From NCBI GenBank assembly GCA_951406725.2, contig OX597829.1:30566001-30630000 (forward strand): a DNA stretch of 64,000 nucleotides, in the 5' to 3' direction. Made by a program: the position numbers and the translations under genes. The notes below the pieces were generated by a model that saw only the letters and a program-made list of their open reading frames with translations, was not told where the DNA came from and ran no database searches. This document shows positions 1,582 to 63,340 of the stretch, piece by piece. This DNA comes from Octopus vulgaris. Taxonomy: Eukaryota. The stretch's first letter is position 1. Every line of letters begins with the position of its first letter.

Positions 1582-1767
1582 TGTCAATGAAAGTTCTTTC
1601 GTCACACATTCTGTGACTTCTTTGGTGACTTTCTGTCCCATGTGTCTCCTCTTGTCCTGTTTATTCCATTTTGTCAAAAAAGGAATGGGCAGGACAAGAG
1701 GTGACATATGGAACAGAAAGTCACCAAAGAAGTCACAGAATGTGTGATGAAAGAACTTACACTGACA
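1582..1767. repeat. ~90-bp-arm palindrome made of two inverted Penelope-like terminal fragments, each with a degenerate hammerhead-like motif
   Basis: AAGTTCTTTCGTCACACATTCTGTGACTTCTTTGGTGACTTTCTGT... is the reverse complement of ...ACAGAAAGTCACCAAAGAAGTCACAGAATGTGTGATGAAAGAACTT, with almost no spacer. Confidence 0.85.
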
Positions 1768-1774
1768 AATAAAC

Positions 1775-1844
<70 letters not shown>

Positions 1845-1867
1845 CATGATAATAATAATAATAATAA

Positions 1868-1995
1868 AGTGATATTGAAGATGAAATATCGTGTGCGCAT
1901 GTTTAATCAGCAAAAGATGACCATCCCCAAATATAACAATATCTGTTTCAACAAACAAATTTCATGTTGCAAGAATCTTGCAAAACAAATGCATA
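1868..1995 (+). mobile_element. Penelope-like terminus with tail
   Basis: TGACCATCCCCAAATATAACAATATCTGTTTCAAC...AAGAATCTTGCAAAA matches 19870-19950 and 28652-28710. Confidence 0.6.
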
Positions 1996-6527: not shown

Positions 6528-8304
6528 CAACAACTCAAGGGCTTACTAGCGATAGTCAAACAATTCAGTGACGACATCAGAATGCAATTCGGCCTCGATA
6601 AATGTGCAAAGGCTACCTTTATCAAAGGAAAAATGACTGAAACATCTAACGTTAACCTTGACCAACAGAATGTCATAAAAGAACTAGACCCAGCGGAGAG
6701 CTACAAGTATCTAGGGGTAATTGAAGGGAACGGAATAAGGCATTCAGAGATGAAGGAAAGGATCAGGAGAGAATGCTATCGAAGAGTGAGAGCAATACTC
6801 AAGACAGAGCTGAATGCAAGAAACAGGATCGAAGCGATCAATGCATTAGCCATACCAGTCGTGACTTACAGTTTCAATATTGTTAACTGGTCAATTACTG
6901 AAATATGTCAGCTCGACAGAAAAATAAGGAAACTGTTGACAATGCATAGAATACACCACCCTAAGGCAGATACAGAACGACTCTATCTGCCAAGAAAAGA
7001 GGGAGGCCGTGGTCTTTTGCAACTGGCAATAATGAAGATTGCTACAATTGGCCTAGACGATTGCTACAATTGGCCTAGACACCTACCTGAAAAGATTGCT
7101 ACAATTGGCCTAGACACCTACCTGAAAAACTCTGAGGACTGGATGTTAAAACTTGTCTCAAAACATGAAAACAAGAAAGCATCATACTCAGTCACAAAAC
7201 AGGCAAAGGAATATCTAAGTGAATTCCGAATACAACCAATTTCGGAATTAGAGATAGATATACAAGAAACAAGCACAGAAAAAGCTAGGCGCATGAAAAC
7301 CCGTGCCAAAACTGCGGCCTTAGATATTCTGAATAATAAATTGCAAGAAAAACCTCTCTATGGCAAATACCCAAAGAGTGCGAATAATGCAGATATCGAC
7401 AAAGCCCTGACCCATCAATGGCTAATGGCCTCTGGCTTAAAATCTGAAACAGAGGGGTTTATCATAGCAGCTCAAGATCAATGCCTACCAACAAGAAACT
7501 ACCAGGCCAACATATTAAAGAACAGCAGTAGCCCAACATGTCGTGTATGCCGACAACAAAATGAAACCATTGACCATGTTGTCTCCAAATACAGTCTTCT
7601 AGCGCCTACAGAGTACCTCAGTAGGCATGATAGAGCTGCACAATATATTCACTGGGTAATTTGCAAAAACCTGGATTTGCCCCATGAAAAAAAACTGGTG
7701 GGAACACAATCCACCTCCTGTGCTTGAAAATGACCACATCTCACTCCTCTGGAACTTCACCATTCAAACTGACAGGAAGATAGATGCAAATATGCCAGAC
7801 ATTATATTGAAAGACTTCAGACAAAGAACATGCCTCCTCATTGATATGACTGTCCCAATCGATATAAACGTATCTGTCAAGACCTACCAAAAACTGAGCA
7901 AATATAAAGATCTTGAAATAGAAATCAGCAAAATGTGGAAGCTGAAGACTAAAACAATACCTGTTGTCATAGGTGCCCTGGGAATGATAGCGAAAGGGAC
8001 TGATTGCTACCTAACTCAGATACCAGGAAACCCCAAAATGGCAGAAATTCAAAAGAAAGTGCTCATGGGAACTGCTCATATCCTACGCAAAATACTCTCT
8101 ATGTAATCCCAAGGTTTAAAACAAACTTTTTTTTATTTATTTATTTTTTATTTTTATGTATTAGACATTCACTAGTACAACACCAAAAAAAAAAAAAAAA
8201 AACCCCAAATATATGGCACAGAACTTCCAACCTGTTGTCTCTTGAGGTCTCTGGGTGAGACTTGGAGCCAACTTGTACAGACATTAAAGCAAAAGTCAAA
8301 CATA

Positions 8305-9362: not shown

Positions 9363-10804
9363 TCAGGTAATCCCATAAGTTCTGTCCAAATTTTGAATAA
9401 AGTAAACAAGTGATCAAATGTTATATTTAATTGTAATTTAACCATCAATGTACTTTCCCTGATTATCTATGACTTCCTTCCATCTATGTACAAGCTTTTT
9501 AATCTAATCAATGCAAAACTCTTTTGGTTTCAAAAAAAAGAACTCTGAAATGTTAGTTTTGACCTCCTCCTGGCTTGCGACAGTTATGTCCCCCAAATGA
9601 TTCTGTAAACTACAAAACAAATGGTAGACTGAAGCAGCAAGGTCAGGAGAATAAGGTGGATGAGAATTTTTTCCCAACCAAGCTCTTCGATCTTCTGTGA
9701 TATGATCTTTTCAGTGTGGGGTCGCGCATTGTCTTGATAAAATATCACTCCTTTTTGATTTACAAAGGGGGCCTTTTTTTCTTCAAAGCTTGGTTCAAAT
9801 GCTCTAAGTGCAGACAGTAGACTTGAGCATTGATTGTTGCATTAGGTGGTAACAATTCAAAGTGAATTACTCCATTGCAATCCCACCAGATAGAGATAGT
9901 TGTGGTTGAGCTTTTTCCCTTTTACCAAGCCACTGTTTACGACATTTAACATTTCAATAGAAGATCCATTTTTCGTCACCTGTCACAAGTCTATCCAAAA
10001 AGGATGAAATGAGTTCGTGAGAATGGGAAGAAGAGCAGATGTCAACTCGGGATTTGCAGTTGCTTTCAGACAATTCATGAGGCACCCATTTTCCAATTTT
10101 AGGAACCTTTCCAAGTTGTTGAAGATGATGATGAACAGTTATATGGTTTGAACTAAGCTTTAATACTGATAATGCAGTATTTTCTTCAAGTAATGCCTCA
10201 AGGAGTTTATCATCAAACTCAACTGGACATCCTGTTTGATCTTCATCTTCAAGGCTGAAATCTCTTCTGTATTTTGCAAACCATCTTCTGCCAGTTCTTT
10301 CATTCAAGCATTCTTTCCCATAAACTGAGTGTATGTTTTGAGTCACTTCAGCTGTAGAGTTTCCTTTTTTGTACTCATAAAGCATTATGTGCCTTAAATG
10401 CTCTTTGGATATTTTCATGTTAGAAAGGGTTTTAATCAAAAAAATTTTAATTCTATTATTCTGTAAAATAATATTTAATTAGTTAGGTGGCACGTAAAAA
10501 GCACCCACTACACTCACGGAGTGGTTGGCGTTAGGAAGGGCATCCAGCTGTAGAAACATTGCCAGATAAGACTGGAGCCTGGTGCAGCCTTCTGGCTTCC
10601 CAGATCCCCGGTCGAACCGTCCAACCCATGCTAGCATGGAGAACGGACGTTAAACGATGATGATGATGATGATGATGATAGTTAAAATAATGTACACAAA
10701 TGCATAAAAATCATTTTTAATTCCATTATATATTCTAAAATACTATTAAATTTCATTCAATTTTAAACACGGTAAAATTGGACAGAACTTATGGGATGAC
10801 CTGA
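9363..10804 (-). mobile_element. Mariner (Tc1/mariner) transposon, decayed
   Basis: TIRs TCAGGTAATCCCATAAGTTCTGTCCAAATTTT / AAAATTGGACAGAACTTATGGGATGACCTGA, TA TSD; transposase ORF 9954-10439 with HTH, WVPHEL and VTGDEKW; downstream minus-strand remnants include a YSPDLAASVY motif. Confidence 0.95.
10486..10678 (+). mobile_element. RTE-LINE 3' tail fragment inserted in the mariner
   Basis: Matches the 3' UTR at 18440-18615; ends in (GAT)n; TSD TAGTTA. Confidence 0.85.
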
Positions 10805-13900: not shown

Positions 13901-15699
13901 GACCCTCCCAGGAATGGGAGATGGAAAAGATTGGTGACTGTCTTAAATCTCTTCAGGTATGTCATAAATTTCTTCTGGCACATCATGAAAATAAGAGAAG
14001 GAAATAAACATTTCATTTTTGTATTATATGCCTGGAGAAATTTAAGACATTTCCAAAGGAATTTAAGTTCCCACTGTAATGTCAGAGTTAGTGGAAACTG
14101 TAATTTTTACTTCTTGATTTGGAAGATTTTAACATATGAAAAAATAATAATTTGGATAAGAAATGTAATTAGCAGATGGTGAAACTTGTCTATTTAATGC
14201 ATTCAAGTGTTTTAGTATTTCATGGCATCAGCTGAAAGTTATATCTGCAGGTAAGTAATTATGTACCTTGTGCGATGGTCACAGCATGGCAATTATATTA
14301 AACACTTAACAGACAGTTGATTAACATCAATGAACAATCAGCTTAATTAACATCAATGAACAAATAGCTAATTAACATTTCATCACACACAACTGTTGAT
14401 GTATGAATACATGTACGTTATACATGTATATATTTGTGTGTGTGTGAGTGAATGTGTGTGTATACATATATACATACACACACATGCACCTACACACATA
14501 CATGCACAAGGTGTTCATGCTAAATTTGACTCTTTTTTATGTCTTCTAATTTTAGGAACAGCTTGATGAATTTCAGGAACAGTGGATGGCTTTGGAGAGC
14601 ATAAAGATTAAAGCTGTAGCTGAGAAAAAGTTAGCCAACATGAAGAACCGAAAGCTATCTGAATATTGGAAAACAGTTACCTGTATCATAATAATTCATG
14701 CCAAGTGGCAAAATGCTACCTTATGACTGCTGCTCAATGCTCTATGAATACTGCGAAGCCTTTTAGGGATTCATCCCCACACACACCACCACTGCAAGAT
14801 ATTCAGTGAAGGATGAAGAAGCCACCACAGTTTCATGTGATTGATCTATAAATTGAACAATCAACATGAAGCTGTGGTGTGATCTGGCTTCTCAGATCCA
14901 GAATTTGTCCCTTTTTTTATCCTATGAAAACTGTTTGACAACCTAAAGAGTTTGCTATCAACCACATGGTTCTGAGTTCAACCTCACTCCATGGCAGCCA
15001 GTCATGTGTGTGTGTGTGTGTATGTTTGTCCCCCACCACTACTTGACAATTGGTGTTGGTGTGTTTACATCCCTATTCTGCAAAAGGCATCAGTAGAATA
15101 AGTACCATGCTTAAAAGAAAAAAGTACTGGAGTTGATTCATTCAACTAAAAATCCAAGGCAGTGTCCCAAAATGGTGGCAATGTCACTTACTTGGTGACC
15201 TCACCAGTGCTGTTGTCATATAAAAAGAAATCAGTATACTCAGACAGCCGGAGAGCCTGAAGGGTGAAACAAGCTCTACTGTTAAACCATCCAACCAATG
15301 CAGTGTGGAAAATGGACATTTTATATATATATATATATTCTTTTATTCTTTTATTTGTTTCAGTCATCTGACTGCGGCCATGCTGGAGCACCGCCTTTAG
15401 TCGAACAAATCAATCCCAGGATTTATTTTTTGTAAGCCTAGTACTTATTCTAATGGTATCTTTTGCCGAACCATTAAGTTACGGGGATGTAAACACACCA
15501 GCATCGGTTGTAAAGTGATGTTGGGTGTGCATGTGTGTGTATAGGTGCATGTGTGTGTGTAGGTGCATGTGTGTGTATGTATATATGTATACACACATTC
15601 ACTCACACACACACAAATATATACATGTATAACGTACATGTAATTAGCTATATATAATATTAAGGAGTATATATATAAAATGTAAGTGTACATGTTCAA

Positions 15700-16070
15700 C
15701 AGAGTGCCAGTGTTCTGATAGAAGATTGCACTAGTTTGGTTATTTGATGTGAATGGATGGTGATGGCTCCAATAAAGAAGTTCCAAACTTTCAAAGTTGA
15801 TGGAACATGTGGAAGTGGGAGACCCTGGAAGACAGGTGATGAAATACTGAAGAACAACTTCAAGAAGCTGAAGGTAAGATGACAAAGGACCAAGATACCT
15901 AGTGCTTGGCCATACTCAAAAAAACCTGTACCCCGCAGCAGAAGTGTTAAGACTGATCCTTCTGGTGGCATAAAGCACACATGGTGATGCCATGTAAAAG
16001 GACTCATGCAGCACCATGTAAAGGCTCTTGTGTGGTGCACATACAAGCACCCATACAGTGCCATGTAAAA
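15700..16070 (+). pseudogene. Degenerate RTE 3' end
   Basis: Homologous to 17741-18013 (...VDGTCGSGRPWKT); followed by GCCATGTAAAAG-like 3' UTR repeats. Confidence 0.55.
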
Positions 16071-16244: not shown

Positions 16245-16290
<46 letters not shown>

Positions 16291-16407
16291 TGTATTTCAG
16301 GGCGGTCAATTTTTTTTCTTTTTTACCAAGTAAACACACACACTATATGTTGTTTTTATTCACTCATTTATTACTGTTCTTATTTTATCATTTTAATTCA
16401 TGTCCAT

Positions 16408-16453
16408 TGTCTAGAAATTTTTCGTCACACATCTGTGACCTCTTCAGCGACAC
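16408..16453 (-). ncRNA. Minimal type-I hammerhead ribozyme candidate
   Basis: Minus strand reads GTGTCG CTGAAGA G GTCACA GATG TGTGAC GAAA AATT TC TAGACA; core intact, stem I imperfect. Confidence 0.6.
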
Positions 16454-16560
16454 TCTTCATTTTCGTTTGTGTTCTTGCTCCACTTACTCCATTCTGTTCT
16501 TCTAAGATGTGTATCCTTATGTGCACATGCATTTGAGTCCTTGTGTGTATGTATATGTGT

Positions 16561-16624
<64 letters not shown>

Positions 16625-17726
16625 CTTGTGTGTGTGTGTCATAGTTTTTAGCAGCAGTGTGTCCTTCCCCTCAGCCCCATCCTCTCACACCATTGTGCTG
16701 CTGCTGTCCTAAGACCCCCTCCACCAAAAAAAAGAAAATGGTACAGTTCCTGTATTCCTCTATGTATGTGTGTTCGCCCATGGTGTTGCCATCTTGGTAG
16801 TTGTTGTTATTGCAATCGTTAGCACTGCCACTGTTGATGATGTTGTTGATATTGTTATGGCTGTCCATGAAATCTCATTGTGTATATTTGTTTGTATGTA
16901 TAGGTTCACTTCGTATGTAGTATGTGTCCATGCTATATATATAGTTTTATTTATTTAATATATCTCTATGTCTTATATTTATCACAGGTATGTGGCAGAT
17001 ATATTTATATATTTATTTATTTATCTATTTATATACTTACAAACAATAAGTTAAGTAAACGAAGAAATTTTTTTGTTAAGTTTCTATTCATATTTATTAT
17101 GGAATTCTCCCTCTGACAAACAATAACTATAGAACACTTTTATTAGTTAGTTTTAGCAACTTTTTTATATCAATAACTTTAAATAAACAGAAGAGTTATA
17201 ATATATTGAAAATGTAATTATCATTATATCTTTTTATACGTTTTATTACAGTTTATAGATTAAGTAAGACCCTGATACTTAATTATATACATATATATTA
17301 ATGTTGTAAGTTATTATAGTAGCAAAAGATTGTCATAGATCTAAAGGAACTTGGATTGCTATTATTTGAGATATATAGAAATATATTTCAATAGTTGTAG
17401 ATTCTACTTACTTAATTATTTTGTCTGTTATAATTTTGTTATTTAATTTTTTATGTAATGATACGTAGTTGAATGGTTAACACTCCTGCTCATAATACAT
17501 AGGCATTTTTTTTACATTCCAGCAGTTCTTTCACAAGGAATTTCATCTATCTGTACATCACTGCCCTGATGTGACTTATATGTAAGGTAACTGAATTGTC
17601 TATATATCAAAAAATGTATATAAGTTGAAATAAATTGTTGGCTTTTTTGGTTGTTTAAATAATTGTTTATGTTATATTGTATTATATTCATAGTATATTA
17701 TGCTATATTATAATATAAATAAAGTA

Positions 17727-18615
17727 CCTCGAGAGAAAGGTTGGACTTAAGAAGCATCAGATGTGGTGTGGAAGAGAGGCGACTGCGTTGGTATGGTCAT
17801 GTGGCGAAAATGGATGTGGATAGCTGTGTGAAAAAGTGCCACACCCTAGCGGTTGAGGGAACCTGTGGAAGAGGTAGACCCAGGAAGACCTGGGATGAGG
17901 TGGTGAAGCATGACCTTCAAACATTGGGCCTCACTGAGGCAATGACTAGTGACCGGGACCTCTGGAAATATGCTGTGCTTGAGAAGACTCAGCAAGCGCA
18001 AGTGAGACAATAACCTTCTCGGCAGGCACAAGTGAGACCATAACCTTGTGGCCTATCTGCCAGGGGTGTAACCAGTCCACTTATGCATGCCTTTCCTTCA
18101 TTGGACACTAAACTCTGCTTGCGAAGACCAGTTGAGGCAAGTGAAATCAAAATCGAAATCAAACCCGATTCCGAAGACCTGTTGAGGCAAGTGAAATCAA
18201 AGTCGAAATCAAATTCGGTGACTGGCATCCATTGCTAGTGAAGCGCTAAGAGTACCATATGAGTGAGATCGTTGCCAGAGTAACAAGCTGGCCTTTGTGC
18301 CGATGGCATGTTAAAAGCACCATTCGAGTGTGATCCCTACCTGCAACATTCGAGAGATGTTATTGCTGTTGCCAGTGCCGCAACATAAAAAGCACCATTT
18401 GAGCATTGCCGTTGCCAGTACTACCTAACTAGCCCTCGTGCCGATGGCAAGTAAAAACACCCACTACACTCTCAGAGTGGTTGGTGTTAGTAAGGGCATC
18501 CAGCTGTAGAAACTCTGCCAGATCAGATTGGAGTCTGGTTCGCCAGACCTCAGTCAAATCATCCAACCCATGCTAGCATGGAAAGCAGATGTTAAATGAT
18601 GATGATGATGATGAT
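17727..18615 (+). mobile_element. 5'-truncated RTE-clade LINE (ORF C-terminus plus 3' UTR)
   Basis: ORF 17741-18013 RRLRWYGHVAKM...GRGRPRKTWDEVV...DRDLWK is a typical RTE C-terminus; the 3' UTR ends in (GAT)n. Confidence 0.9.
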
Positions 18616-19720
18616 GAAATTATTGGATTGTCAATTGTATCTCTCTATTTAATTTATTGTTTGTCATTTGCATTATACTCATATTTATGTGGTATATACC
18701 TAACATACCAATGAATTGGGTGTTTTACAAACCCCTTTGAAGGAATTTCTTTCCTTTGTTACCTTATTATATATTTATTTATTTATTTATTATTATTATT
18801 TTCCCATTTTTTTATATATCTATCTCTATTTCTCATAGGTATCACAGCTAAGTGCATATATGTCTACTGTGTGTGTATTATCCTGTATATTTCTTTGTAT
18901 TATTTATGGCTTTTTTCTTCCTTTTTTTCCTCTTACTTCTCATCCTAACTGTCTTTAGCCATGTGGTGTGGTGGTGGGTGTTACTGTTCTATTCGTGTTT
19001 TCTATTGAGGCTTGGCCTGTCTACTGTTATGTGTGTAGCTTCTGTGATCTGTCTAAGATTCATGTCAGTTCTATGTGTCAGTAGTACTTTAACCTCTATA
19101 CTATTAATCAAGCTTCTATGTTCTGCCTGAGCATGTTGGTAGAGCACTGATGAACTTTCCCTTCTTTGAGCTCTCACCAATGTTCACCTATATGCTCTCC
19201 TATGCTGCATGCAGTCTCTCCAGTGTAGGTAGTTGTCATGTTTCTGCACTGTCCCTTAGTACAAAGTAAGTTATACACTATATACCTAACCTTACAGTTA
19301 AGCTGTAGGTTCATCCTACATACAGCACAATTGTACTCCAAAAAGAGGGACCTATCAAAGGGATAGGTATTGCAAATCAGGGATTTTAAAGGGGCAACTA
19401 ACAACATCAGCAACAGCAGCAGTGCCAACGATGGCAATAACAACAACTACCACAATGGCAACATCATGAACAGAGGAATAGAGGAACTGTACCATTTCCT
19501 TTTTTTTTCGGGTCTTAGGGCAGCAGCAGTTTGATGGTGTGAGAGGATGGGGCTGAGGGGACGATCACACTGCTGCTAAAAACTATGACACACACACAAG
19601 CACACACACACACACACTCACTTACACACTCACAAGGACACAAACACATGTACACGTAAGGATACACATCTTAGAAGAACAGAATGGAGTAAGTGGAGCA
19701 AGAACATGCAAAAATGAAAA

Positions 19721-19767
19721 GTGTCGCTGAAAAGGCCACAGATGTGTGACGAAAGATTTCCGGACAA
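19721..19767 (+). ncRNA. Hammerhead ribozyme-like motif with mutated core
   Basis: GTGTCG CTGAAAA G GCCACA GATG TGTGAC GAAA GATT TC CGGACA; a G8>A change probably inactivates it. Confidence 0.45.
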
Positions 19768-19954
19768 TGGACATGAATTAAAATAATAAAATAAGAACAG
19801 TAATAAATGAGTGATTAAAAACAATCTATAGTGCATGTGTCTACTTGGCAAAAAAGAAAACAAAACTTATCATCCCAAAATACAACAATATCTGTTTCAA
19901 CACATGAGATTTCACATCAGGAATCTTGCAAAATCTTGCAAAATGAATTGATAA

Positions 19955-19957
19955 ATG

Positions 19958-20045
<88 letters not shown>

Positions 20046-20049
20046 TATA

Positions 20050-20080
<31 letters not shown>

Positions 20081-20089
20081 GTACATATA

Positions 20090-20128
<39 letters not shown>

Positions 20129-20170
20129 TTATCAATTATATATATATATATATATATACATACATTTATC

Positions 20171-20244
<74 letters not shown>

Positions 20245-20343
20245 ATATGTATATATAGATATAGATACACACACACATATATATATAAAGAGAGAGAGAT
20301 TAAGATATACATATAGATTTATATATATATAAATTTATGAGAT

Positions 20344-20377
<34 letters not shown>

Positions 20378-20405
20378 ATAGAGAGAGAGATAGATAGATA
20401 GATAC

Positions 20406-20460
<55 letters not shown>
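19955..20460. repeat. Compound (TA)n/(TG)n microsatellite with higher-order duplications
   Basis: Directly visible. Confidence 0.97.
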
Positions 20461-20464
<4 letters not shown>

Positions 20465-24219: not shown

Positions 24220-24295
<76 letters not shown>

Positions 24296-24349
24296 ATTTA
24301 GGGATGGTCATGTTACCACTTTAGCCAATGAAAACACATGCACTATATA

Positions 24350-25619
24350 CGAGGGGCGTTCAATAAGTAATGCCCCTGACCCACTTGCAGTTGTTTGATC
24401 TAGCTGAAATTTTGCATGTGCACTTATTTATACCACTATAGATTAAGTGGCGAATTACAGCTCTGAACTAATTGTGGTTTCTGCTTTACAGGTGTTTGAA
24501 CTGAGTCAAGTGTGAAATGGAGCCTGTTGAGTGTCGAGCAGTGATCTGGTTTTTGTATTTGAAAGGACGCACACCACGGGAGACTTTTGATGAAATGAAA
24601 GTAACTTATGGTGATGATGCCCCATCATATGACCTTGTAAAACGCTGGCATTGTGAATTCAAACATAGTCGGAACTCTGTGGAAACAGCTCCCAGATCTG
24701 GTCGCCCCCTTCTGCCGTTGATGAGACGTCTGTCCGTCAAGTTGAGGCTGCCATTTTGGAAGGTCAACGCATAACTATTCGCCAAATAGCCCATAAGGTC
24801 AAGATTAGTACCGGGTCTGTGGAAACTATCATTCATGACCATTTGCATATGCAAAAGGTGTCTGCCAGATGGATTTCCAGGTTGCTCACACCTTTCCAGA
24901 AGCAAGAACGCGTTGAGTGCTCGAGGATGAATTTGGAGATGTGCCAAGAAGATGAGTCAAAATTTTTCAAAAGACTGATCACACAGGATAAAACCTGGGT
25001 CCATCACTATGATCCATAGACCAAAGCCCAGTCAATGCAGTGAAAGCACTGTGACTCACCTCCTCCAAAGAAGGCAAGGGTGCAGCCCTCCGCTGACAAG
25101 GTTATGCTCACAGTCTTCTGGGACCGGGACAGAGTAGTGATGACAGATTTCCTGGCAAAGGGTACCACAATTACAGGAGCCTATTATGCTTCACTTTTGA
25201 GCAAATTAAGAGAAGCTATCAAAATCAAGAGGCGGGGCAAGATCAGCAAAGGCATCCTCCTCCTGCAGGACAACGCTCCGGTCCACAACTCGCGTGTCGC
25301 CAGATCAGAAGCACAGGTGTGCAGCTATGAACTCCTCCCCTTGCACCCTCTGATTTTCACCTCTTCCCAGCCATGAAGTTGATTTTGAAAGGAAAGCGTT
25401 TCCCAGATGATGCAGCCTTGATTTCTGAAGTCGCGTCATGGTTGGAGGACCAAGCTGGGGTCTTCTACAAAAACGGTCTCCAGAGCTGTATCAAACGATG
25501 GGAGAAATGCATAACTCTGGGTAGTTCCTATGTAGGAAAAGACTAATAACTGTGCCAAGTGTTGTTGCTCTACTGCTATGGGAAGTGGGTCAGGGGCATT
25601 ACTTATTGAACGCCCCTCA
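24350..25619 (+). mobile_element. Mariner transposon, near full length (~1.27 kb)
   Basis: ~37-bp TIRs CGAGGGGCGTTCAATAAGTAATGCCCCTGACCCACTT, TA TSD. Confidence 0.96.
24517..25546 (+). pseudogene. Mariner DD34D-type transposase, disrupted
   Basis: HTH (PRSGRP), ITQDKTWVHHYDP, LLQDNAPVH and LAPSDFHLFP across ORFs 24517, 24756 and 25080; frameshifts, stops and loss of HPPYSPD. Confidence 0.92.
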
Positions 25620-25672
25620 TATTTGGTGTTCACTTGCTTCAGCTTTATTTTATTTTATATTAATTGTATTTT

Positions 25673-25717
25673 GGCCAGAGTTCTTTCGTCACACTACTGT
25701 GACCTCATCAGTGGTCC
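25673..25717 (-). ncRNA. Minimal type-I hammerhead ribozyme candidate (best copy)
   Basis: Minus strand reads GGACCA CTGATGA G GTCACA GTAG TGTGAC GAAA GAAC TC TGGCC: intact CUGAUGA, GAAA and UC core, 6-bp stem II, stem I CCA/TGG plus GG/CC. Confidence 0.7.
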
Positions 25718-27299
25718 TTTGCTTTCCTCTTTCTTTTTTTTGTTTTCCCTTACTAACAATCTGCCATTTTGTATTCCAGTTGTATGTGTCATTATCTGCA
25801 CATGCATATATCCTTGTGTGTCTTTGTTTGTGTGCGTGTATATCCCTGTGTGTATCTATGTTTAGTAAGTGTGTGGGAATGTGAATGGTACCTACATTAT
25901 CAGTATCCCCTGTTTATTCACGCTCGTTTAATTTACTTTTATTTATCTTATTCATTTGTTTTTATCTACTTACTTTTTTATATCTTTCTTTTTTTTGTAT
26001 TAATTTAATTTAATTTATTTTGTTTATTACTCTTTTACTCTTTTACTTGTTTCAGACATGTGACTGCGGCCATGCTGGAGCACCGCCTCTAGTCGAGCAA
26101 ATCGACCCCGGGACTTATTCTTTGTAAGCCCAGTACTTATTCTATCGGTCTCTTTTGCCGAACCGCTAAGTGACGGGGACATAATCACACCAGCATCGGT
26201 TGTCAAGCAATGCTAGGGGGACAAACACAGACACACAAACACATACATATATATCAGGGGCGTGCACTCTCAGGTATGCAAGGTATGCGTTGCATGCCCT
26301 GTGATTTTTTTATCCATATGATCGGAAAATTAGATAAAATAGTTACTTTGTTTCAAAGAAAATCCGTCCAGTTGTATTTTGTCTCCCCTTCCCTCTCAGT
26401 GACTCTACTTCTGCTTTTAGAAGTCATGCATTGACAAGACCAGCATGTTAGACACTCCCTCTCTGTCTTAGTTTGTCCTTCCTTCCTCTCTCTCTCTCTT
26501 AGTGACTGTTTAAAAGACATGCTAAGAGGATAGGGCATTTGAAATATTTTTACCCCCTTCCTCTTTCTTTTAGTGGCTATGCTGTGGGATGACCCGCATG
26601 ACCTCCCTCTCTGTCTCTTAGTTTGTCCCTCCTTCCTCTCTCTCTTTTAGTGAATTGATAAAACAGATGCTAGGAGGAAAGGTTGTTCATAATATTTTGT
26701 ACCCCTTCCTCTTTCTCTCAGTGGCATGTCATGCTATGAGCTGACCGCATGATACCCACTTTCTGTATCTTTCTGTTTTGTTGAAATTGACTTACAATTT
26801 ACGCTGGCGCTTCCACGTGTGTTCGTTCGTATATTTTCGTATATTTTACGAAATGAGTGAAATGTGTTATAAACGATATTTTGAGAAATAGTTTTTCGAA
26901 AGGAGAATTCGATGGAAAATAATTAATTATATCGGTGGGAGACCAACACCGAAAAGGGCTAATGCATTAGATAACATTGTTAAAAAAAAGATTTCCGAAG
27001 GCAACAGCCTCACGGCTTATTATTACCACAAAGTAAAAATTATCATTTCATAATCAGCCTTTTTGAGCACATCATTGAAAATCCTGAAGCATGGGATGAT
27101 ACCACCATAAATTCAGCAATTGGATTCTTACAAACTTTAAAAGCTCCTGATTTCTTATTTTTGTTAGAAGTATTCAGTGAGATTTTTTCTTTTTTCATAT
27201 TTAACATCCTCCAGAGTAAAAGTCATAACATAGTGTATTGTAAAGATCAAATAGATAAAACTAGAACTGTACTCGAAAACAAACTTGATAATTTTTCAA

Positions 27300-27838: not shown

Positions 27839-28082
27839 GGTACTATTTAAGAAGAGTGGTCCCGGTGCGCGCACTCAAGCATCCACGCCAGCTAGTCGTG
27901 ACTAGTCGATCCTTACTTTGTGTTTTATTTACTTTGTTAAAAACAATATTTACTTTGTGTTTTATATATTTTGGTTAAAAAATTTATTTACTTTGTTAGA
28001 TAGTCGTAGGATCGACTAGTCACGACTAGCCAGCGCGGATGCGCGAGCGCGCGCAACGGGATCACTCTTCTTAAATAGTACC
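27839..28082. repeat. MITE-like element with ~75-bp GC-rich inverted repeats
   Basis: GGTACTATTTAAGAAGAGTGGTCCCG...CTAGTCGTGACTAGTCGATCCT versus AGGATCGACTAGTCACGACTAG...CGGGATCACTCTTCTTAAATAGTACC. Confidence 0.85.
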
Positions 28083-28303: not shown

Positions 28304-29259
28304 CACGACAGGCTTCTTCCAGTTTCCGTCTACCAAATCCACTCACAAGGCACTGGTCGGCCCGGGGCTATAGCAGAAGACACTTGCCCAAGATGCCACG
28401 CCGTGGGACTGAACCCGGAATCATGTGGTTGGTTAGCAAGCTACTTACCACACAGCCCCTCCTGCACCTATTGCACCTGTTTATGTATATAATTATCTAA
28501 TTCATTTTATTTATCTGTGTGTTGTATTAGCTTCATATTATTATCAGTTTATGGGGATCTTGTTCTGTCATAGTTTGTGGTGTGTGTGTGTGTGTGTGGG
28601 GGTGAACACTAAATATAAAGTGCGTGTATTTTCATTGGTTAAACTGGCAACATGACCATCCCCAAATCCAACAATATCTGTTTCACATCAAGAATCTTGC
28701 AAAATGAATATATAAACATATATATATACATATATATATATAACATACATATAAGAGGTAGATTCCTAATATGCTAAAGGTAGACCCCATATGGTCAGAC
28801 CACTAAGAAAAATTGTTTTCAAGAAATTTCGGCAAACACTAGAACGTAAAGCAAGCAAGACAAATGAAAAGATACAAAATTTAGTAATAAGTCACATACC
28901 TAGGTTTCATTGTTACCTTTTACATTACGTAAAAGTCCACAAATCATCGTTGTGACCACCATGGAAAATATAATTTTCAGAACTATACATGAGATGTCCT
29001 CACAAGAGAGAACATGTATACAGTTCTATCAATTATATTTGGGGGCATATTTCAAATGTCTTTGTTTCAGCATGCTGAAGACAGAAATGACTCTGCAATA
29101 CACACACACACACACACACACACATACACACACACATACACACACACACACACGCACGCGCGCACACACACACACACACACATACTTACATATATACATA
29201 CATACTTACATATATACATACTAACATACACATACACACACCACACACACATATATTTG

Positions 29260-29750
29260 TGCTGTTTAATGCTGAAAAGTTTCAAGTCCTATGTTATCAG
29301 CATGCAAAACTAACTGCAATACCCACTAAATACACTGCACTTGGAGGGATTGCAATCCCAGAGACACAGTCAGTGTGTGACCTGGGCATTTCCATGAATA
29401 ATGATACATCATTCCATGTACAAATTGCTAAGTTGGCAATGAAATGCAGACAACTGACTGGATGGATTCTTAGAACTTTTAAATTGAGAAATCAAGAAAC
29501 CATGATGATCCTCTGGAGGACATTTATCCTAAGCCACTGTGACTAATTCTCCCATCTATGGTTCCCAACCAGTGCAAAATTAATTTCAGAACTGGATCAA
29601 TCCAACGAAGCTACACAAAGAAGATAGCCTCTATGTCACATGTAAGCTACTGGGAAAGACTCAAGAGATTGAGACTCTATTACCTACAGCATAGGTGCGA
29701 AAGATATGCCATAATATACATCTGGAAGATTTCAATTCCAAAATTTGGAG
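29260..29750 (+). pseudogene. CR1-clade LINE RT C-terminal fragment
   Basis: FNAEKFQVL, DLGI, GWILRTF, IQRSYTKKI...SYWERLKRLRLY...RCERYAIIYIWKI. Confidence 0.85.
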
Positions 29751-29799
29751 TTAGACTCTCCATTATTATTTACCATATATATAGCACTGCGTATCCCTC

Positions 29800-30345
29800 A
29801 CATCTCCAGGGAGTAGAATTCCAGTTCATCAACTTCACCCAGTAGCCCATGCATTTTACTGATTCTATCTTCTTTGTGTAGTGGCATTGGATCGCCTCTA
29901 GTTCTGCAATTAGTTTTACACTCTATAGGGACCACAACTGGGAGCAGTACTCCAGAATACTGAGGACAAAGGTTCTCCAAAGCAGAAGCATTGTGTCTCT
30001 GTTTCTGGTCCTGAAGGATCTAAGGATCCAACCTACCACCTGCCTGCATAATGTTGCCACCTGAGCAATGTTTACATAGAAAGTTGCGTTGCTGCTCATG
30101 TGGATTCCCAGGTCACGCACTAACTCTAACTCTCAGATTACATTGCCTGCTGGTCCCGTGTACTTCAGTTGTATTTGGTTTGTGGGCCAACTTGAAGTTT
30201 GTGGGCCAACTTGTGGAGTGCTTGAAATTTTACAGCATTGAACTGCATATTATACACATTAGCCCATTTGTATATTGCGTTCAGGTAATTCTGTAGTTTT
30301 AGGATGTCAGTAGGATCCTTGACCACCTGCGATATCCCCAAAACA
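29800..30345 (-). pseudogene. Second CR1-clade RT fragment, opposite orientation
   Basis: LQNYLNAIYKWANVYNMQFNAVKFQAL; RDLGIHM...GWILRSFRTR...LEYCSQLWS. Confidence 0.85.
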
Positions 30346-47190: not shown

Positions 47191-49129
47191 TGTACCACAG
47201 CCATATATAACTTTAACGTTTTAGTATTCAGATTACTTAATGTAAGATAATGCTTGACCAATACAAATCAAAGTGAATAAATAAGCATTACATTTGACAG
47301 AGTCACAGCTTTGAGGTTTCAATGACGTGATTGTTTATTTTCAGAATCATATTGTAGGTAAGTGTGAAAAGCTGGATAAGGCTAGTCAGAAAATAAAACA
47401 GGTACAATACTAAGACATTTTTTGGTCTTTTTGATGAATCTTTTTACAAATGTGGTTTGGCCACTGCTGATGATTGCTGACAATAATTAAGTCATGTCCA
47501 CCAACAAATATTTTAAGATTGGTGTTGTGCAGGAATTAAGTAAATTCCAGGTTTTTACTTGTCTACAGTCACCTTGAATTGTCAGTTAGTATTCCGTTCC
47601 TACAGCATATTTAGATCAGATTGCAAGAAAAATCTATAGTGTATAGAGCCCAATCTTTTAAACTCAAGCTTAATTTTGTTCATGTATTTTATCACACTAA
47701 CATGCTTCTAGTTAACATTTCATTAATATATACAGCAAACAAAATAAAACACACACACACAATTCTGCTTTTGGAACAGTGTTTCTTGAGATACATCGCA
47801 TAAAGCTGTAAGTAATTATATGTAAATATTGGGTTAAAAACCCTTTTGGATAGACAAAATTGAAGGCTGCCTTCGATTCACTCTATTCAAAAGAGTTTTC
47901 AGCCCAATATTTACACACGATTATTTTATAGTTTTATGTACTTCAAGATCTACTTTAGCAAAAAAATGAATATTTCACATTCTCCTGAAAGTTTACACAC
48001 AGAGGAAGGCTTCTTTCAGTTTCTACATATCAAATCTAGCCAAAAGGTTTCAGTTGCTGAACCTATAGTAGCAACACTTGCTCAAGATGCCTCACACTGA
48101 GTGAATGTAAAACCTTTTTGGCAAGTGGATGTCTTAAACACACAGGAATGCCTAAACCTAAATAATACATAGCAATAACAATATAAAACAAAATGAAAGG
48201 AAACCCCAAATGGGGATTGGAGGTAACTACATAGTATGATTGTGGGAACCCCATAAACATACTCTGGATTATCTTGACATACCAAAGACAAGTTATGTCT
48301 CCCAGTTCATGCTGCTTACCTACAGCAGCATAGTTGCAGTAGAGCTGATTAGCCTTGACAATATCACCCACTTTTCATATTTTCTCAGAGGGAAGCATCT
48401 CCACCATTCCTTCCCTTTCAAATAATAATTGAAAAAGTTGATGAGGAACACTTTTTGCTATTCCTTGCAAAAATAAAGTGGTTGGCTGATTTTCCTGATA
48501 AACTCAGTGGTTAGATAAATCCATCTTGCATGTGATAACAGCTGCTAGACATAAACCCACAAACTGAACAAACACTAAACAAGTGAAAACAGGTGGCTCT
48601 TGTATGGCCATGTCTGTAGAATTTATCTTCAATTAGCAAAAGTTTCTGACGTAGCAGTGCTACAAAGGAACTTTGCAAACTGTCCATAATATTTGACCCG
48701 AAAGTCATTGAGAACTGACAATCCAGACTGCCCTCATCAAAGCCTAAACAATTCCTAGGTCATTAGTGTTCTCACCATTCACAAATCTACAGAATATGAA
48801 GACTGACACTCCATCAACCATACTGTCCAGTTGGAAAACTAAGAGTCTGGTGCCATTTCAAATGCCAGATTTCCAAACTCAGTCTGTACTTGACTGAGAA
48901 CTGCAGTTAAGAATGGTTATCAGTTGTAGATGGACCTCTTGACCAATAGAACTTGTTCCAACCACAAAATGTGAAAGTGTATATATTCTAAACAGAGCAA
49001 ATGCTATCAAAAATAGAAAACAATGGCTATGTAGAAGAGATCATAAAAATGTTAGCCACTTTCGCTTGACGTCCCATGCGAAAAATTCATCTCAGCTCAT
49101 TTCTGAGCAAGACTGGCCACTCCACTTAT

Positions 49130-52900: not shown

Positions 52901-53657
52901 AGAAAAAATATTTTTCGAAAGTTTTTTTTACTAAAAAGATGCTTTTAGGAACACTTTCTAAACACGAAAACTTCACCTGTCGTAAACTGTTGAGATTCAT
53001 TAAATACCATAGAGTTGCATATAAAAAGGTAAGTTTTAGTCATTTTGTTTTGTTTTGTTTTCGGCGGCAATAAAGAAAGAAATTCATAAACATGGTGCTG
53101 AATATGGTTTCACTATGCATAAAGTTAAGTGTGATTTAGCTGTTGTTTAATATTTTCTCCCCATAAACGTATTTAATTGGTACTTCTTAAAGGCAGAGGT
53201 AAAGAATATGTACACCACTCATTTTTGGCGTAACAAAAACCCTAACCCTAACTCTAAACCCTAAACATGGGGTGTACGTATTCTTTACTTTTACCCTACA
53301 TAAATACCAAGGTCTCGACGCATCTATGTAATGATATAAAGGGGCGGATAATCTAGTTTTATCAAAAGTACTGTGACTTCACATAAGTGGTCCCTGTGTA
53401 AGTCAAAACTTAACCCTAACCCCTAACTGGTGAAGGTAAAGAATACGTGCACCACCCGTTTTCTGCATAATCCTGACCCTAACCCTAACAAGTGTGCACT
53501 GTAAAACATCAGATTAAAAACAGACGATACTGCGAGGTAAAAGATCAGAGTGAAAACAGACAATATTGTGGGGGCTCTTACATCATTAACTGTAGTTTTG
53601 GTAAAACTAGATTACCTCCCCTTCATATTATTATGGGACCTCTGTATAGAATTAATT

Positions 53658-53797
53658 GAAATTTAATTTGTCAAAATATTTTTGTCACTTTGAGACCCCG
53701 ACCTGCTTACTGACAAAATTCCATGCAGCACGGAATTTTGTCAGTGAACAGGTCGCGATCTCAAAGCGACAAAAATATTTAGACAAATTGAATTTAA
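53658..53797. repeat. ~140-bp palindrome (MITE-like)
   Basis: AATTTGTCAAAATATTTTTGTCACTTTGAGACCCCGACCTG..ACTGACAAAATTCC / GGAATTTTGTCAGT..CAGGTCGCGATCTCAAAGCGACAAAAATATTTAGACAAATT. Confidence 0.88.
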
Positions 53798-54877
53798 ATG
53801 TTGAAGTGAATTTAATGCTTTTTGTGTGTTTTTAAATGACTTATAAACATCTCCCATGCTGCAATTGTTTTTGTTTCAGTACACAATTTCAGATCAGGTC
53901 ACTTGCTATGCAAGTACATCTCTGTAATTCATTTAATTGAGTAATGGAAAAAAAAAAAGGGTTTAAGAAAAATGAAAATGCCATCTGTATTGTTAAGAAA
54001 GATGCTCCCCTCATTTCCAAGGGCACCACGAAAAAAATTATCTGAAAAACCTCCTGTCAAAACCGACAAGTTCCAACTTGTATGTGCTACCTATTGCTGA
54101 CGTCCGCCTACAGACTGCCACTTTTCATGGCATTACTGTTGTTACTTTCTATTCTTCAGATTTAAGTTGCATTTCGTGTTCAATGAGTTTTCATTTGTTC
54201 AATTATGGTCCGTAAAGTAATAAGAATGTTGTCAATTTAAAAAAAAAAATTATCTTAAGACATGATTATTTTCACTTGTTCACATGTTGACCGAGTATTT
54301 AGTAATGTCCATTTAAAAGCATCCAATTCCTTAAGACTATTCTGCAAAATAGTTATGGCAAGTAATGTAATAACCATTCACTTCAAGTTGGAATTTCTTT
54401 CTGTTCAAACAAACTGTCGTCACTATTGAGTTAGGTCTTGACTCTTAGAGGGATAAACTTTTCCCTAATTCTTTCATTTACACAAACAAATTCCTTTAAA
54501 CACTTTTAAACAATGGAGTACTTCAGTAACACTTTTCTTTTCTTTTTTGCAATTTGCGTAATGTTATTGCTAAAAAATATTGAAAACTGTGAACAAGAAA
54601 TGAGTAAGCTTTGCTCAATTGATCATTGCAAAAGGAAAAAAGTCAAGAGGAATTTTCGGTGTCTTTTCTTTGAAATTAAAGTAGGATTTCTGTGCATTGA
54701 AAAAGTGAAGATTTTTTCCATTGCATTCATTAACAAGAACCATGAGTTGTAGAATGTGGGAGAATTGAAAAATCACAAAACATTTTTTCGCTTTTTTTAA
54801 AAAAAAAGTTCATGACAATTATTTCAACATCAGCTACGATTTGAGCAGAATTTTGTGCACAATATGAGCTAGACGGA

Positions 54878-59510: not shown

Positions 59511-61787
59511 TATAATGTATGTTTGTGCAAACTTTTGTTTCTATGTTCATTTTCCACACATTTTTTTTTTTTTACACCTGATGAACTAAGCTTTTTTTTT
59601 TTTTTGTTTTGGTGACTGGGTGCTAAACTAGATCCTGAAAGTTATGAGGGAAAAAAATCATCGTGTGAATATTCCGACAATCCTCTTCCCACCCCGTCGG
59701 AAAATATTTTCCCCACAAATTTTTTTTACAATCGTAATCTATGCTGTTTGAAAGGTGTTTAACAATCACTATTCTTTTCGTTGTTGGATTTTGAGTCAGT
59801 TTTTTCTCGCACTAACATCTAATTTGATAATTTTTCAAGTTTCAAAAAGAGTCTAAAATGGGGGTAAAATGAGTAATGTCTAATTTCAATAATTTCTTCT
59901 CTTTAACTGCACGATGAGTAAATATATCACGAAGAGGAGAATCCAGCAGATCGTGAAGAAGTTATAGATAATATTTTGTTGATTTATATTTTATTTATTT
60001 ATTTATTTATTTATTTTTATTTTAGTCGAGTTTCGTTAATTTTACCTCTTTCCTTTGACCTGATATAGTTTTTGTAAAGTAGTGAACATCTGGCTCAGTT
60101 AAAAAAAATACAGTAAAAACACCCCATTTCACTCCACCCTTGTGTTCAATAAAGCTCAGACTCAATTTTTTCAATATAGACAAAAAAAAAAAAAATTGTT
60201 TTTTTTTTCCTTTGTAAAGTTCCAAAAGAAAGGGAAGAAAACTGCGAAACTTTGTATATTGTACGAACTTTTCCTTATGTAGACATCTTAATATTTAATC
60301 TGTTTTCCATGCATGCTTTTTTTCTCTTTATACTTTTATATATAGATTATTTTTTTTTGGCATACCTACACAAGTGTACTCACCCTCCCCCACACCAACT
60401 TTGTTTCCTCATAATTTTCAGAAAAATGGAATTTTCTAATGAAAATTTTCTACCAATATGCTTCAGATGGTATAAATTCATATTATATCGGAATTTGTTG
60501 TGAAAAAATGTTTATGGGTGTGGGGAGATGGGTTTTGGAAAATTCACACGAGTCAGTTTTGTTCAATCATTACTTTCAGAAAAATGGGTTATTGGTTATT
60601 TATTATTTTTTTAATGAAATTTTCAACAAATACCTTTCAGAGTTTGTAGATTGTGACTATATCGGAATTTGATAAGAAAAAGAAAGAAAAAGATGTTGGA
60701 CTTGTACGCATACATACTGATATATTTCACATATATCTACAAAACAGAACTTGATGTTTCGAAAAAATATTTGTGGTGTATGTCGATATGTATGCGTGCA
60801 TCTTTACTATTTTCTTTTTTTATGTCAAATTCCGATATAATCATAATCTACACATGGAAAGGTATTTGTAGAAAACTTCATCAAAAAGGTCCCATTTTTT
60901 TTCTGAAAGTTATAGAGAAATAAAGCTGACTCGTATGAATTTTCTGAAACTCCTCTCCGCACAGTGGAAAATATTTTTCACAACATTTTCTGATGTAATT
61001 GGAATCTACACCATCTGAAGCGTATTTGTAGAACATTTAATTAAAAAATTATCCATTTTTCTGTAGTTAGAAAGAAACAAAATCGATTTATAAGTTTGCT
61101 CTTTTTGCATTCATGTAAAGGACTGGGAGGAGACTACTTGTAGCAGTGATTTAAACCCGTCAGACACCATGAATGAACCACCACAGTTCCACCTGATCGG
61201 TCTACTAAGCAACCAATTAGCCTGAAGCTGTGATGTGAGTTGGCTTTCTAGAATGTTCCTTCTTGTACCCTATAAAGCACCACTTGTAACTCTTCTTAAT
61301 CACGGAATGTTGAAGGCAGTTGAGTGACATGCACCTCCATTCTTGTCATGCTGGCAGTTCCAGACATTTGCAGAGTCATCCCCAGTTTCTCAGACAGACC
61401 CATTCTGATTGTTCACATGGTGTCTCATAAGATGCAGTGCAATTTTTCTTTCTCCCATTATGTAATGATAATAATAATAATAATAATCATTATTATTATT
61501 AATTGTAAATGGTCAACAACAAATATTCTTATGTCTGGCAATAAATATTTCAGTTCACATATTTTGCTTCTGTTATTGTTCCCACAACCAATGAAATATA
61601 CCCATATTGCATCCACAAAGCACCAATGCAGCATAGTCTATGGACCTGAAGACAACATTATGCAGTTTCTGTATACTGATTTTTTTCCCAAACTTATCAC
61701 TGTGTTCAATATTGTATATAAAATTATGTAGTCAACAATCAGCTTCTAAACAACCTCATTCTTTCTTCGTGAAATTAAATATATATA

Positions 61788-62654: not shown

Positions 62655-63340
62655 TCTTTTTTCGTTGCTGTCACATTTTGGAATTTTAAAATTAAGTGAA
62701 TATTTTCAAATTTGGTATATTGGTGTAATTTTTCATGCTGAATCAGATTGTTATTCATTTGTTCCAGGAAAATTTTAGAAAAATGTAACAGAGGTTTAAA
62801 GTTTGATCATTTAACCCAGTCAGAAAACAGGATTTGGAAGCTGACATTTTATGTATAATACATATCTATTACAACATTACCGACAACAAACTTTTTGTTT
62901 TCTTTTTCTAAACAAAATAAAAGCAACAGATGATGGAAGTAGCAAGAGATTTTGAAGTTTTAATAATTTTAAATGAATAAAGTAATGTGAAACTTTGGAA
63001 CAGGCAAGGAAAAATCTTCAATGAAATTCTTTTTGCCAAAAAAAACAAAAAAACTTCTGTAGTTCAGTTCATGTAAACAATACAGTTTTTGTAGCAAAAA
63101 TTCAGTCAAAATTTTGCAATACACGAGGGTTAGTTAGGGTTGGGTTTAGGTCAGACCAACCAGTGGATGTCCTGGAGATAATAAACTAGTAACATGCTTT
63201 TAGTGAACATTTTCCTCGAGTTTTTCTGGAACAAGGGAATAACAAAATCAGATACGGCATGAAAACTTGCATCACTATGCCAAATTTGAAACTGTTAACT
63301 AATTTTAAAATTTCAAAATCTGTGACAGCAAGAAAGAGAA
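62655..63340. repeat. Diverged ~140-bp inverted repeats (old DNA transposon ends)
   Basis: GCTGTCACATTTTGGAATTTTAAAATTA...TTCATGCTGAATCAGATTGTTATTC..TTGTTCCAGGAAAA versus TTTTCTGGAACAAGGGAATAACAAAATCAGATACGGCATGAAAA...AATTTTAAAATTTCAAAATCTGTGACAGC. Confidence 0.6.

Follow-up and report, generated by a model that had tools for sequence, protein, structure and literature searches.

Layout of the locus and its two arms

We analyzed a 64,000-nucleotide stretch of the Octopus vulgaris genome (assembly GCA_951406725.2, contig OX597829.1, positions 30,566,001 to 30,630,000, forward strand), hereafter the window. At window positions 16285-19957 lies what is, with high confidence, a decayed, 5'-truncated copy of a protein-coding Penelope-like retrotransposon family, here called family A; this confidence applies jointly to the identity of the element, its anatomy and the nesting of other repeats within it. 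The copy is dead, and its layout is that of a textbook 5'-truncated inverted Penelope insertion, in itself ordinary. The features are as follows (pLTR, pseudo-long terminal repeat; UTR, untranslated region; LINE, long interspersed nuclear element; ORF, open reading frame).

16248-16286: (TA)n tract at the left end, the likely target, judged from the microsatellite that follows the family's ends
16285-16847, minus strand: left arm, the 3' end (pLTR) of a sense, 5'-truncated family A copy, with the short (tailless) terminus
16408-16453, minus strand: minimal type I hammerhead motif of the left arm, core intact, inner stem I pair broken
16848-17035, minus strand: family A 3' UTR up to and including the AT-rich tract where element B inserted
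17036-17049, minus strand: possible 12-14-nt inverted arm of element B, matching the short end of B; a weak match, seen by eye
17043-17726, plus strand: element B, part 1, the 5'-truncated 3' UTR of a second Penelope-like family (921 candidates in the genome)
17563-17642, plus strand: third hammerhead motif, that of element B, with a long stem II; A9 and C11.1 are mutated in this copy
17722-18620, plus strand: LINE fragment (3' part) with a terminal (TGA)n, inserted in element B with a 3-6-nt overlap
18617-18767, plus strand: element B, part 2, up to the long (tailed) end of B
18768-18967, minus strand: start of the 3' UTR of family A
18968-19397, minus strand: remains of the family A GIY-YIG endonuclease and of its linker zinc finger (CX4CxxC), both decayed
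19396-19397: inversion junction, a 2-nt microhomology common to both arms
19396-19891, plus strand: right arm, which repeats the same 3' end in inverted orientation and is 5'-truncated and shorter
19721-19766, plus strand: hammerhead motif of the right arm, with private G8-to-A and stem II changes
19866-19957, plus strand: opening codons of the ORF, within the terminus and tail, from the match to the sister protein P0025
19892-19957, plus strand: tail, spanning from the family's short terminus to its long one and including a private duplication of 10 nt
19958-20461: (TA)n-rich tract at the right end

The two arms (16283-16847 and 19400-19891) are reverse complements, with 440 of 488 aligned bases identical (90%; blastn, E 1e-131) and gaps mostly in a (TG)n tract. 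The long arm is 5'-truncated at 19397 and holds the end of the endonuclease, the 3' UTR, a hammerhead motif and the short terminus; the shorter inverted arm holds a hammerhead motif and the tailed terminus. A search with the family A terminus returned 3292 candidates in the genome (the totals 3292, 1352 and 921 are first-look search counts), and the best match of the left arm was the right arm. Among 67 copies, the two arms were reciprocal nearest neighbours, at a non-CpG distance of 0.068 compared with 0.135 +/- 0.028, and they have four derived bases in common (background mean 0.75), which fits a single event and speaks against different parents for the two arms of this copy. A single event probably placed both arms in a TA microsatellite, and two nested insertions subsequently interrupted the copy.

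Between the arms, GIY-YIG coding sequence was found at 19386-18968 (minus strand), with one frameshift and in-frame stops. It aligned in two pieces to P0025, the sister-family protein described below (tblastn, E 9e-23 and 2e-19). The stop-to-stop frame at 19174-19446 (minus strand) ends with the linker zinc finger and the GIY-YIG motif, and the next frame is further endonuclease; Pfam gave no useful match for the window's own endonuclease frame. The endonuclease segment had 1352 candidates in the genome. It abuts the sequence running leftward from 17035 directly in 22 of the 28 other loci that reach its 3' end, which indicates that 17036-18767 was inserted later; upstream, the same loci run into reverse transcriptase (RT) coding sequence. 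The block at 17.0-17.7 kb was carried by none of the 29 loci with the segment. The interior is thus the element's own 3' end plus a later 1.7-kb nested block.

The order of nesting is family A, then element B, then the LINE. The two pieces of element B are contiguous in other loci, so the ~0.9-kb LINE piece was inserted into B at this locus. A hammerhead motif belongs to element B itself, which also occurs in inverted pairs and ends at two fixed points ahead of (TA)n. Four B loci among those fetched (numbered with an L in this text; L160, L157, L123, and L162) have a Hydra-type endonuclease end, as compared by eye with Fig. S2 of PMC8557442. Element B would therefore be a Hydra-like Penelope, from this endonuclease end, the hammerhead motif and the (TA)n target; Pfam gave no useful match for the endonuclease end. 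The LINE piece has 85% amino acid identity to a 225-aa frame in L049, and Pfam gave no match for the LINE frame. By its motifs, this piece appears to be RTE-like.

Each arm has a hammerhead motif pointing outward, recognized by its core. In the left one (minus strand), C3 is at 16447 and is followed by the core CUGAAGA, one extra G, a 6-bp stem II, GAAA, AAUU, and UC; the predicted cut lies between 16414 and 16413, and the inner stem I pair has gone from C-G to C.A by CpG decay. In the right one, a T-to-C change breaks a stem II pair besides the change of G8 to A. These changes are private to the copy, as the family keeps the bases in 65 and 66 of 69 copies. Over the same 69 copies, the core was kept in 66 at C3, 64 at U4, 61 at G5, 69 at A6, 65 at G8, 65 at A9, 53 at G12, 65 at A13, and 67 at A14. 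The motif sits in the pLTR on the sense strand.

An Rfam scan of the window gave no hammerhead among 119 matches at E <= 1, nearly all of them microRNA models on microsatellites, and the z-scores from single-strand folding of the motifs were unremarkable (-1.3 to +0.7). We therefore base the call of predicted ribozymes on the core motif, the layout and the pairing kept between families: stems I and III differ in sequence between family A and its sister family yet retain their pairing (compared by eye, in two families). The layout is that of the minimal hammerheads of metazoan Penelope-like elements, with a long stem II, a short stem I, an unpaired base between A9 and 10.1, and a tiny self-complementary stem III (PMC4209133), and family A shows no difference from them.

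The first-pass annotation of this DNA, made from its letters, had described a Penelope-like element with inverted pLTR arms, outward hammerheads, a one-sided tail and (TA)n on both flanks, and this description holds, as does its suggestion of a cephalopod host. Some details need amending. The left hammerhead core is intact, as stated, and its stem I pair is broken; the mutated G8 of the right hammerhead stands, and the stem II break had been missed. The tail is on the right arm only, as noted, and measures 66 nt, not the length that had been quoted. The statement that no GIY-YIG coding lies between the arms was wrong.

Coding capacity of family A and its young sister family

The RT of family A was found as a 341-aa frame in L032 (RVT_1, E 8e-5), and RT, endonuclease and terminus were colinear in four of the eight long loci fetched (L112, L113, L117, and L118). 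The GIY-YIG domain was matched by Pfam at E 0.0065 in L032 and at E 0.00036 in the sister family, both just below the curated cut-off. The family A RT is 68% identical to a protein that NCBI assigns to Octopus vulgaris; that protein matches this genome at 100% and marks the young sister family described next. Family A is old, because its copies are ~7-9% from their majority; with the calibration quoted in PMC13282606, the copy at 16285-19957 would be very roughly 10-25 million years old.

A young sister family is 70-74% identical to family A at the nucleotide level in the RT and has the same terminus and tail. It gave 56 listed matches at 91-100% to protein P0001, with open frames of up to ~1312 aa, many of them above 1000 aa. 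P0025 is 1309 aa long from its ATG and has GIY-YIG after RT in one ORF, with CCHH-type cysteines and histidines seen by eye; Pfam gave no useful match for the whole protein. The ORF of the family has, before the RT, an asparagine-rich stretch ~260 aa long, similar to the N-rich inserts of rotifer Penelopes. The sister copy L103 consists of an inverted truncated copy, a partial-tandem pLTR, the 1309-aa ORF, a 3' UTR with a hammerhead, and an end inside the next ORF start. Contigs from four presumed-RNA runs cover the sister ORF, which as evidence is silent on transcription, strand and ends. In outline, Penelope expansions have already been described for octopus (PMC13282606; PMC8967140), and the octopus families named in PMC8557442 are Naiads and one Hydra.

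RT and GIY-YIG coding linked to the terminus, sought at its matches, was thus found in family A as well as in the sister family, and the latter is an autonomous partner with the same terminus. The earlier reading of the element as non-autonomous was therefore mistaken, and so was that of an AT-rich interior cargo, as the comparison of interiors between loci showed.

Paired termini and the mode of insertion

In both families, the ends fall at two fixed points within the start of the ORF, separated by 54 nt, with TA in the element sequence at each point. The tail between them is ORF-start sequence: residues 4-16 of P0025 match 19866-19904 at 85%, and the nucleotide alignment to L103 gives the same placement. 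It is 54 nt long in the family, and the copy at 16285-19957 owes its greater length to the 10-nt tandem duplication and 2 extra nt. Tails of ORF codons occur in rotifer Penelopes (PMC3846280), and an inverted 5'-truncated copy with a one-sided tail is described for Penelopes (PMC8557442).

Of 69 family A ends, 35 were short, 27 were long and 7 were unscored. The scored ends were followed by (TA)3+ in 39 of 62 cases and by some microsatellite in 47 of 62. Every two-armed family A locus with both ends scored had one short and one long end (10 of 10; ~1 in 1000 by chance), and three further two-armed loci were not scorable for end type. The complete young-family loci gave the same result (4 of 4). 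The placement of the tail is free, on the longer or the shorter arm.

The anole Penelope protein nicks both strands in vitro, and its cDNA starts at two internal sites that bound the tail (PMC11167929). From this and from the pairing of one short with one long end, we infer priming on both strands, one at each site, and we lean slightly toward a mechanism in which each terminus receives its own complementary DNA (cDNA). The RT-endonuclease protein would nick both strands of (TA)n, and each nicked 3' end would prime a cDNA from the element RNA, using the short site in one case and the long site in the other. The UA present at both priming sites could pair with a nicked TA end. The two cDNAs would then extend inwards, stop early and join head to head by microhomology, which would be the 2 nt seen at 19396-19397. 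The hammerhead lies ~110 nt upstream of the short site and is predicted to cut multimeric transcripts as a dimer. It is probably not needed for insertion, and the ribozyme was dispensable in vitro for the anole Penelope (PMC11167929). On this account, the strict tailed/tailless pairing supports, from the genome, the use of two RT start sites on opposite strands during a single insertion, a step that the only in vitro study left open (PMC11167929).

Several observations weigh against our account of the locus or of its origin. Neither RT nor GIY-YIG reaches the curated cut-off in Pfam, and Rfam misses the hammerhead motifs at 16285-19957. No intact family A copy was found, with the 5' third of the ORF present as fragments only, so autonomy is shown through decayed copies together with the sister family. 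No target-site duplication is resolvable at 16285-19957, because the flanks are TA repeats. In 8 of 11 other inverted pairs, the arms were not mutual nearest neighbours by either arm; this is uninformative for a star-like family, yet it lends no support to a single template. Short ends were scored by the absence of the tail and may include damaged ends. The priming sites reported in PMC11167929 have no homology to the target, unlike the UA pairing proposed here, and 2-3 nt of TA at a TA junction are indistinguishable from chance.

The main rival, which we consider less likely, accepts the same element and derives the inverted arm from self-priming or fold-back on an antisense template. PMC3846280 argues for it from palindromes at the inverted junctions of rotifer Penelopes, and perfect palindromic junctions also occur in the sister family (L103). 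However, fold-back alone leaves unexplained the paired short and long outer ends of all scored loci in both families. In addition, the arms of the present copy stop far apart and are joined by a 2-nt microhomology, and both-strand nicking and extension have been seen in vitro (PMC11167929).

It is improbable that the arms are independent insertions, or that one arose later as an inverted duplication of the other, although the family is abundant and targets TA repeats and the arms differ at a segregating family variant (hammerhead position 15.2, A in 14 of 69). The arms are reciprocal nearest neighbours with four joint derived bases, and their junction has no TA tract or target remnant. Nor is either arm a plain copy of the other, since only the right one has the tail and only the left one continues into the endonuclease.

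Very improbable is a non-autonomous, ribozyme-bounded element with captured AT-rich host DNA enclosed by the arms. Carriage of host DNA in trans by Penelope pLTRs is known (PMC3846280), and 1.7 kb of the interior does not belong to family A. That foreign block consists of two dispersed repeats inserted afterwards, though, is found in 0 of 29 loci, and leaves as the remaining interior the family A endonuclease and 3' UTR. A retrozyme or other non-autonomous carrier was ruled out: a coding remnant is present, the interior is the element's own, and there are no tandem non-coding monomers. The weakest reading, a DNA transposon, miniature inverted-repeat element or foldback element with long terminal inverted repeats, draws on the long inverted ends and can practically be set aside, because the two termini are not symmetric, arm length is not fixed from locus to locus, many copies have just one arm, and the elements are linked to RT and GIY-YIG coding sequence; no transposase and no family with symmetric terminal inverted repeats was found, and the Penelope identity stands.

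The reverse transcriptase insertion and the placement of the lineage

The locus itself teaches nothing new; its interest comes from the paired-end rule and from an insertion in the RT. In family A and in a broad related lineage, ~131 residues separate motif A from motif B', which corresponds to ~70 extra residues. The spacing was 129-134 residues in 115 of 128 proteins (the other 13 were without one of the motifs) and 114-137 codons in 22 of 30 scorable family A loci, which are decayed. In a library clustered at 50% identity, the long insert was present in 63 of 63 scorable proteins among 146 new representatives (A to C 162-202 residues); these are the best-scoring matches of an insert-containing profile and show breadth, not the absence of short-insert neighbours. 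As a control, a Neptune-type family of the same genome had an A to B' spacing of 62 in 7 of 8 loci. Our hand count in Fig. S1 of PMC8557442 gave ~61-63 for Penelope and Nematis; the corresponding figure was 84 for a Naiad and 118 for human telomerase RT (TERT). The same source describes canonical C-terminal-endonuclease elements as having no insertion between motifs A and B', a description that does not fit the family A lineage. The insertion contradicts this printed generalization and bears on how fingers insertions are gained in telomerase-like RTs.

The predicted fold of the sister RT-endonuclease had a predicted local distance difference test (pLDDT) score of 91.8 and was confident across the insert. 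Its best structural matches were telomerase RTs (Foldseek ranks 1-3; Z 14-17, root-mean-square deviation 3-5 A). The isolated A-B' region (model pLDDT 81.5) found nothing at Z >= 5 among 48,161 representatives or 33 Foldseek candidates, an absence that shows nothing; its best TERT rows had Z 2.7 and 3.1, with 72-74 residues aligned. In these comparisons it did not superpose on the TERT insertion in fingers domain (IFD; 72 of 157 residues aligned, Z 2.7), which suggests that the insert was probably gained independently. In these models, its likeness to the IFD is positional only. A sequence search of the PDB returned nothing with the sister RT-endonuclease and only two bacterial RTs with the profile.

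Family A has a telomerase-related RT, GIY-YIG after the RT, a partial-tandem pLTR and an inverted 5'-truncated copy, as do Penelopes with a C-terminal endonuclease. In known elements of this type, including Adineta Pen2a (PMC3846280) and Poseidon_Ac (PMC11167929), insertions are 5'-truncated and have an inverted truncated copy at the 5' end, as here (PMC8557442). They also have in common with family A a one-sided tail of ORF codons, a pLTR hammerhead, the order RT then GIY-YIG and an AT-rich target; they differ in the tail (30-40 nt vs. 54) and in the A to B' spacing (~62 vs. ~131 residues).

No named group fits in full. Nematis has, like family A, a short CX2-5CxxC linker before the endonuclease (CX4CxxC in family A; Fig. 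S2 of PMC8557442), but the two Nematis RTs in Fig. S1 of the same source are without the A-B' insertion (~63 residues in C. remanei, hand count). Neptune shares the CX2-5CxxC linker, microsatellite targeting and the hammerhead, whereas its linker from CxxC to GIY is long (~25 residues vs. 7 in family A; Fig. S2 of PMC8557442); the Neptune-type family of this genome also has the long linker. The Penelope/Poseidon clade has no linker zinc finger, which family A has, and the Hydra clade differs in lacking CCHH and in having a CxCX5C linker and a short element (PMC8557442). Naiad/Chlamys and telomerase RTs have extra sequence at the same place of the RT, and the whole RT fold is most TERT-like; Naiad/Chlamys also target (TA)n, but in Naiads the endonuclease is N-terminal, a canonical hammerhead is absent, and the extra residues number only ~20.

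The Neptune-type family that served as the control is very young (L132, 2573-3502, minus strand; L179-L186), with 128 scored matches at 99-100% identity and many 811-aa open frames.

In the literature searched, which excluded Repbase, Dfam and the 2006 classification paper, we found no description of the long-insert lineage, and GAIG-type motif strings were absent from the searched portion of the supplement of PMC8557442. Others may already have placed the lineage in Nematis or Neptune, and it cannot yet be called undescribed. It is possibly an unnamed clade, set apart by comparison of motifs and figures.

The young sister family differs from the metazoan minimal hammerheads by a fixed A9-to-C change. 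All 36 complete sightings, which came from 20 fetched stretches at 16 distinct loci, had C at position 9, as in L103 (G000:C17) at 2131-2176 and 15 other young loci. An older relative, a pLTR fragment at window 25619-25829 (minus strand), has the canonical A9 core, with C3 at 25711. No description of the A9C variant was found in the literature searched. The U at position 17 of the young hammerhead was rejected as an oddity, as many Hydra hammerheads carry U17.

Taken together, we tentatively propose an unnamed, widespread Penelope clade with a C-terminal endonuclease and a folded, conserved RT insertion of ~70 residues at the IFD position, gained independently, of which a very young intact octopus member would be spreading despite the fixed A9 change. 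If true, it would offer a natural test of the fingers insertion and of ribozyme roles in Penelope transposition. The intact young family provides a protein and an RNA for testing the paired-end rule and the RT insertion and, with its altered hammerhead core, is relevant to whether Penelopes have any need of their ribozymes.

Other observations concern the rest of the window and the fetched loci. A short palindrome with degenerate hammerhead-like stems at window 1582-1990 is followed by an (AAT)n tract and the tailed terminus of a related Penelope subfamily, with further terminus fragments at 24286-24349 and 28605-28724. An inverted pair of ~100 nt (14408-14507 and 15545-15642; 97% identical) surrounds pieces resembling short interspersed nuclear elements. 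Self-comparison of the window showed other palindromes or inverted pairs at 29328-30165, 60400-61081, 27839-28082, 53655-53799, 47799-47938, and 62660-63335, possibly more inverted retroelement ends. Positions 9957-10478 (minus strand), 7660-8103 (plus strand), and 15679-15909 presumably hold a mariner/Tc1 transposase-like piece and LINE pieces, judged by their motifs. L134-L153 represent an unrelated abundant repeat (1727 candidates) that contains a (GA)n tract and tandem units, each ~130 nt long. Finally, L047 and L052 (G000:C13) are family A insertions in opposite orientation, ~18 kb apart; as they are 98% identical and have common flanks, the pair is a recent segmental duplication.

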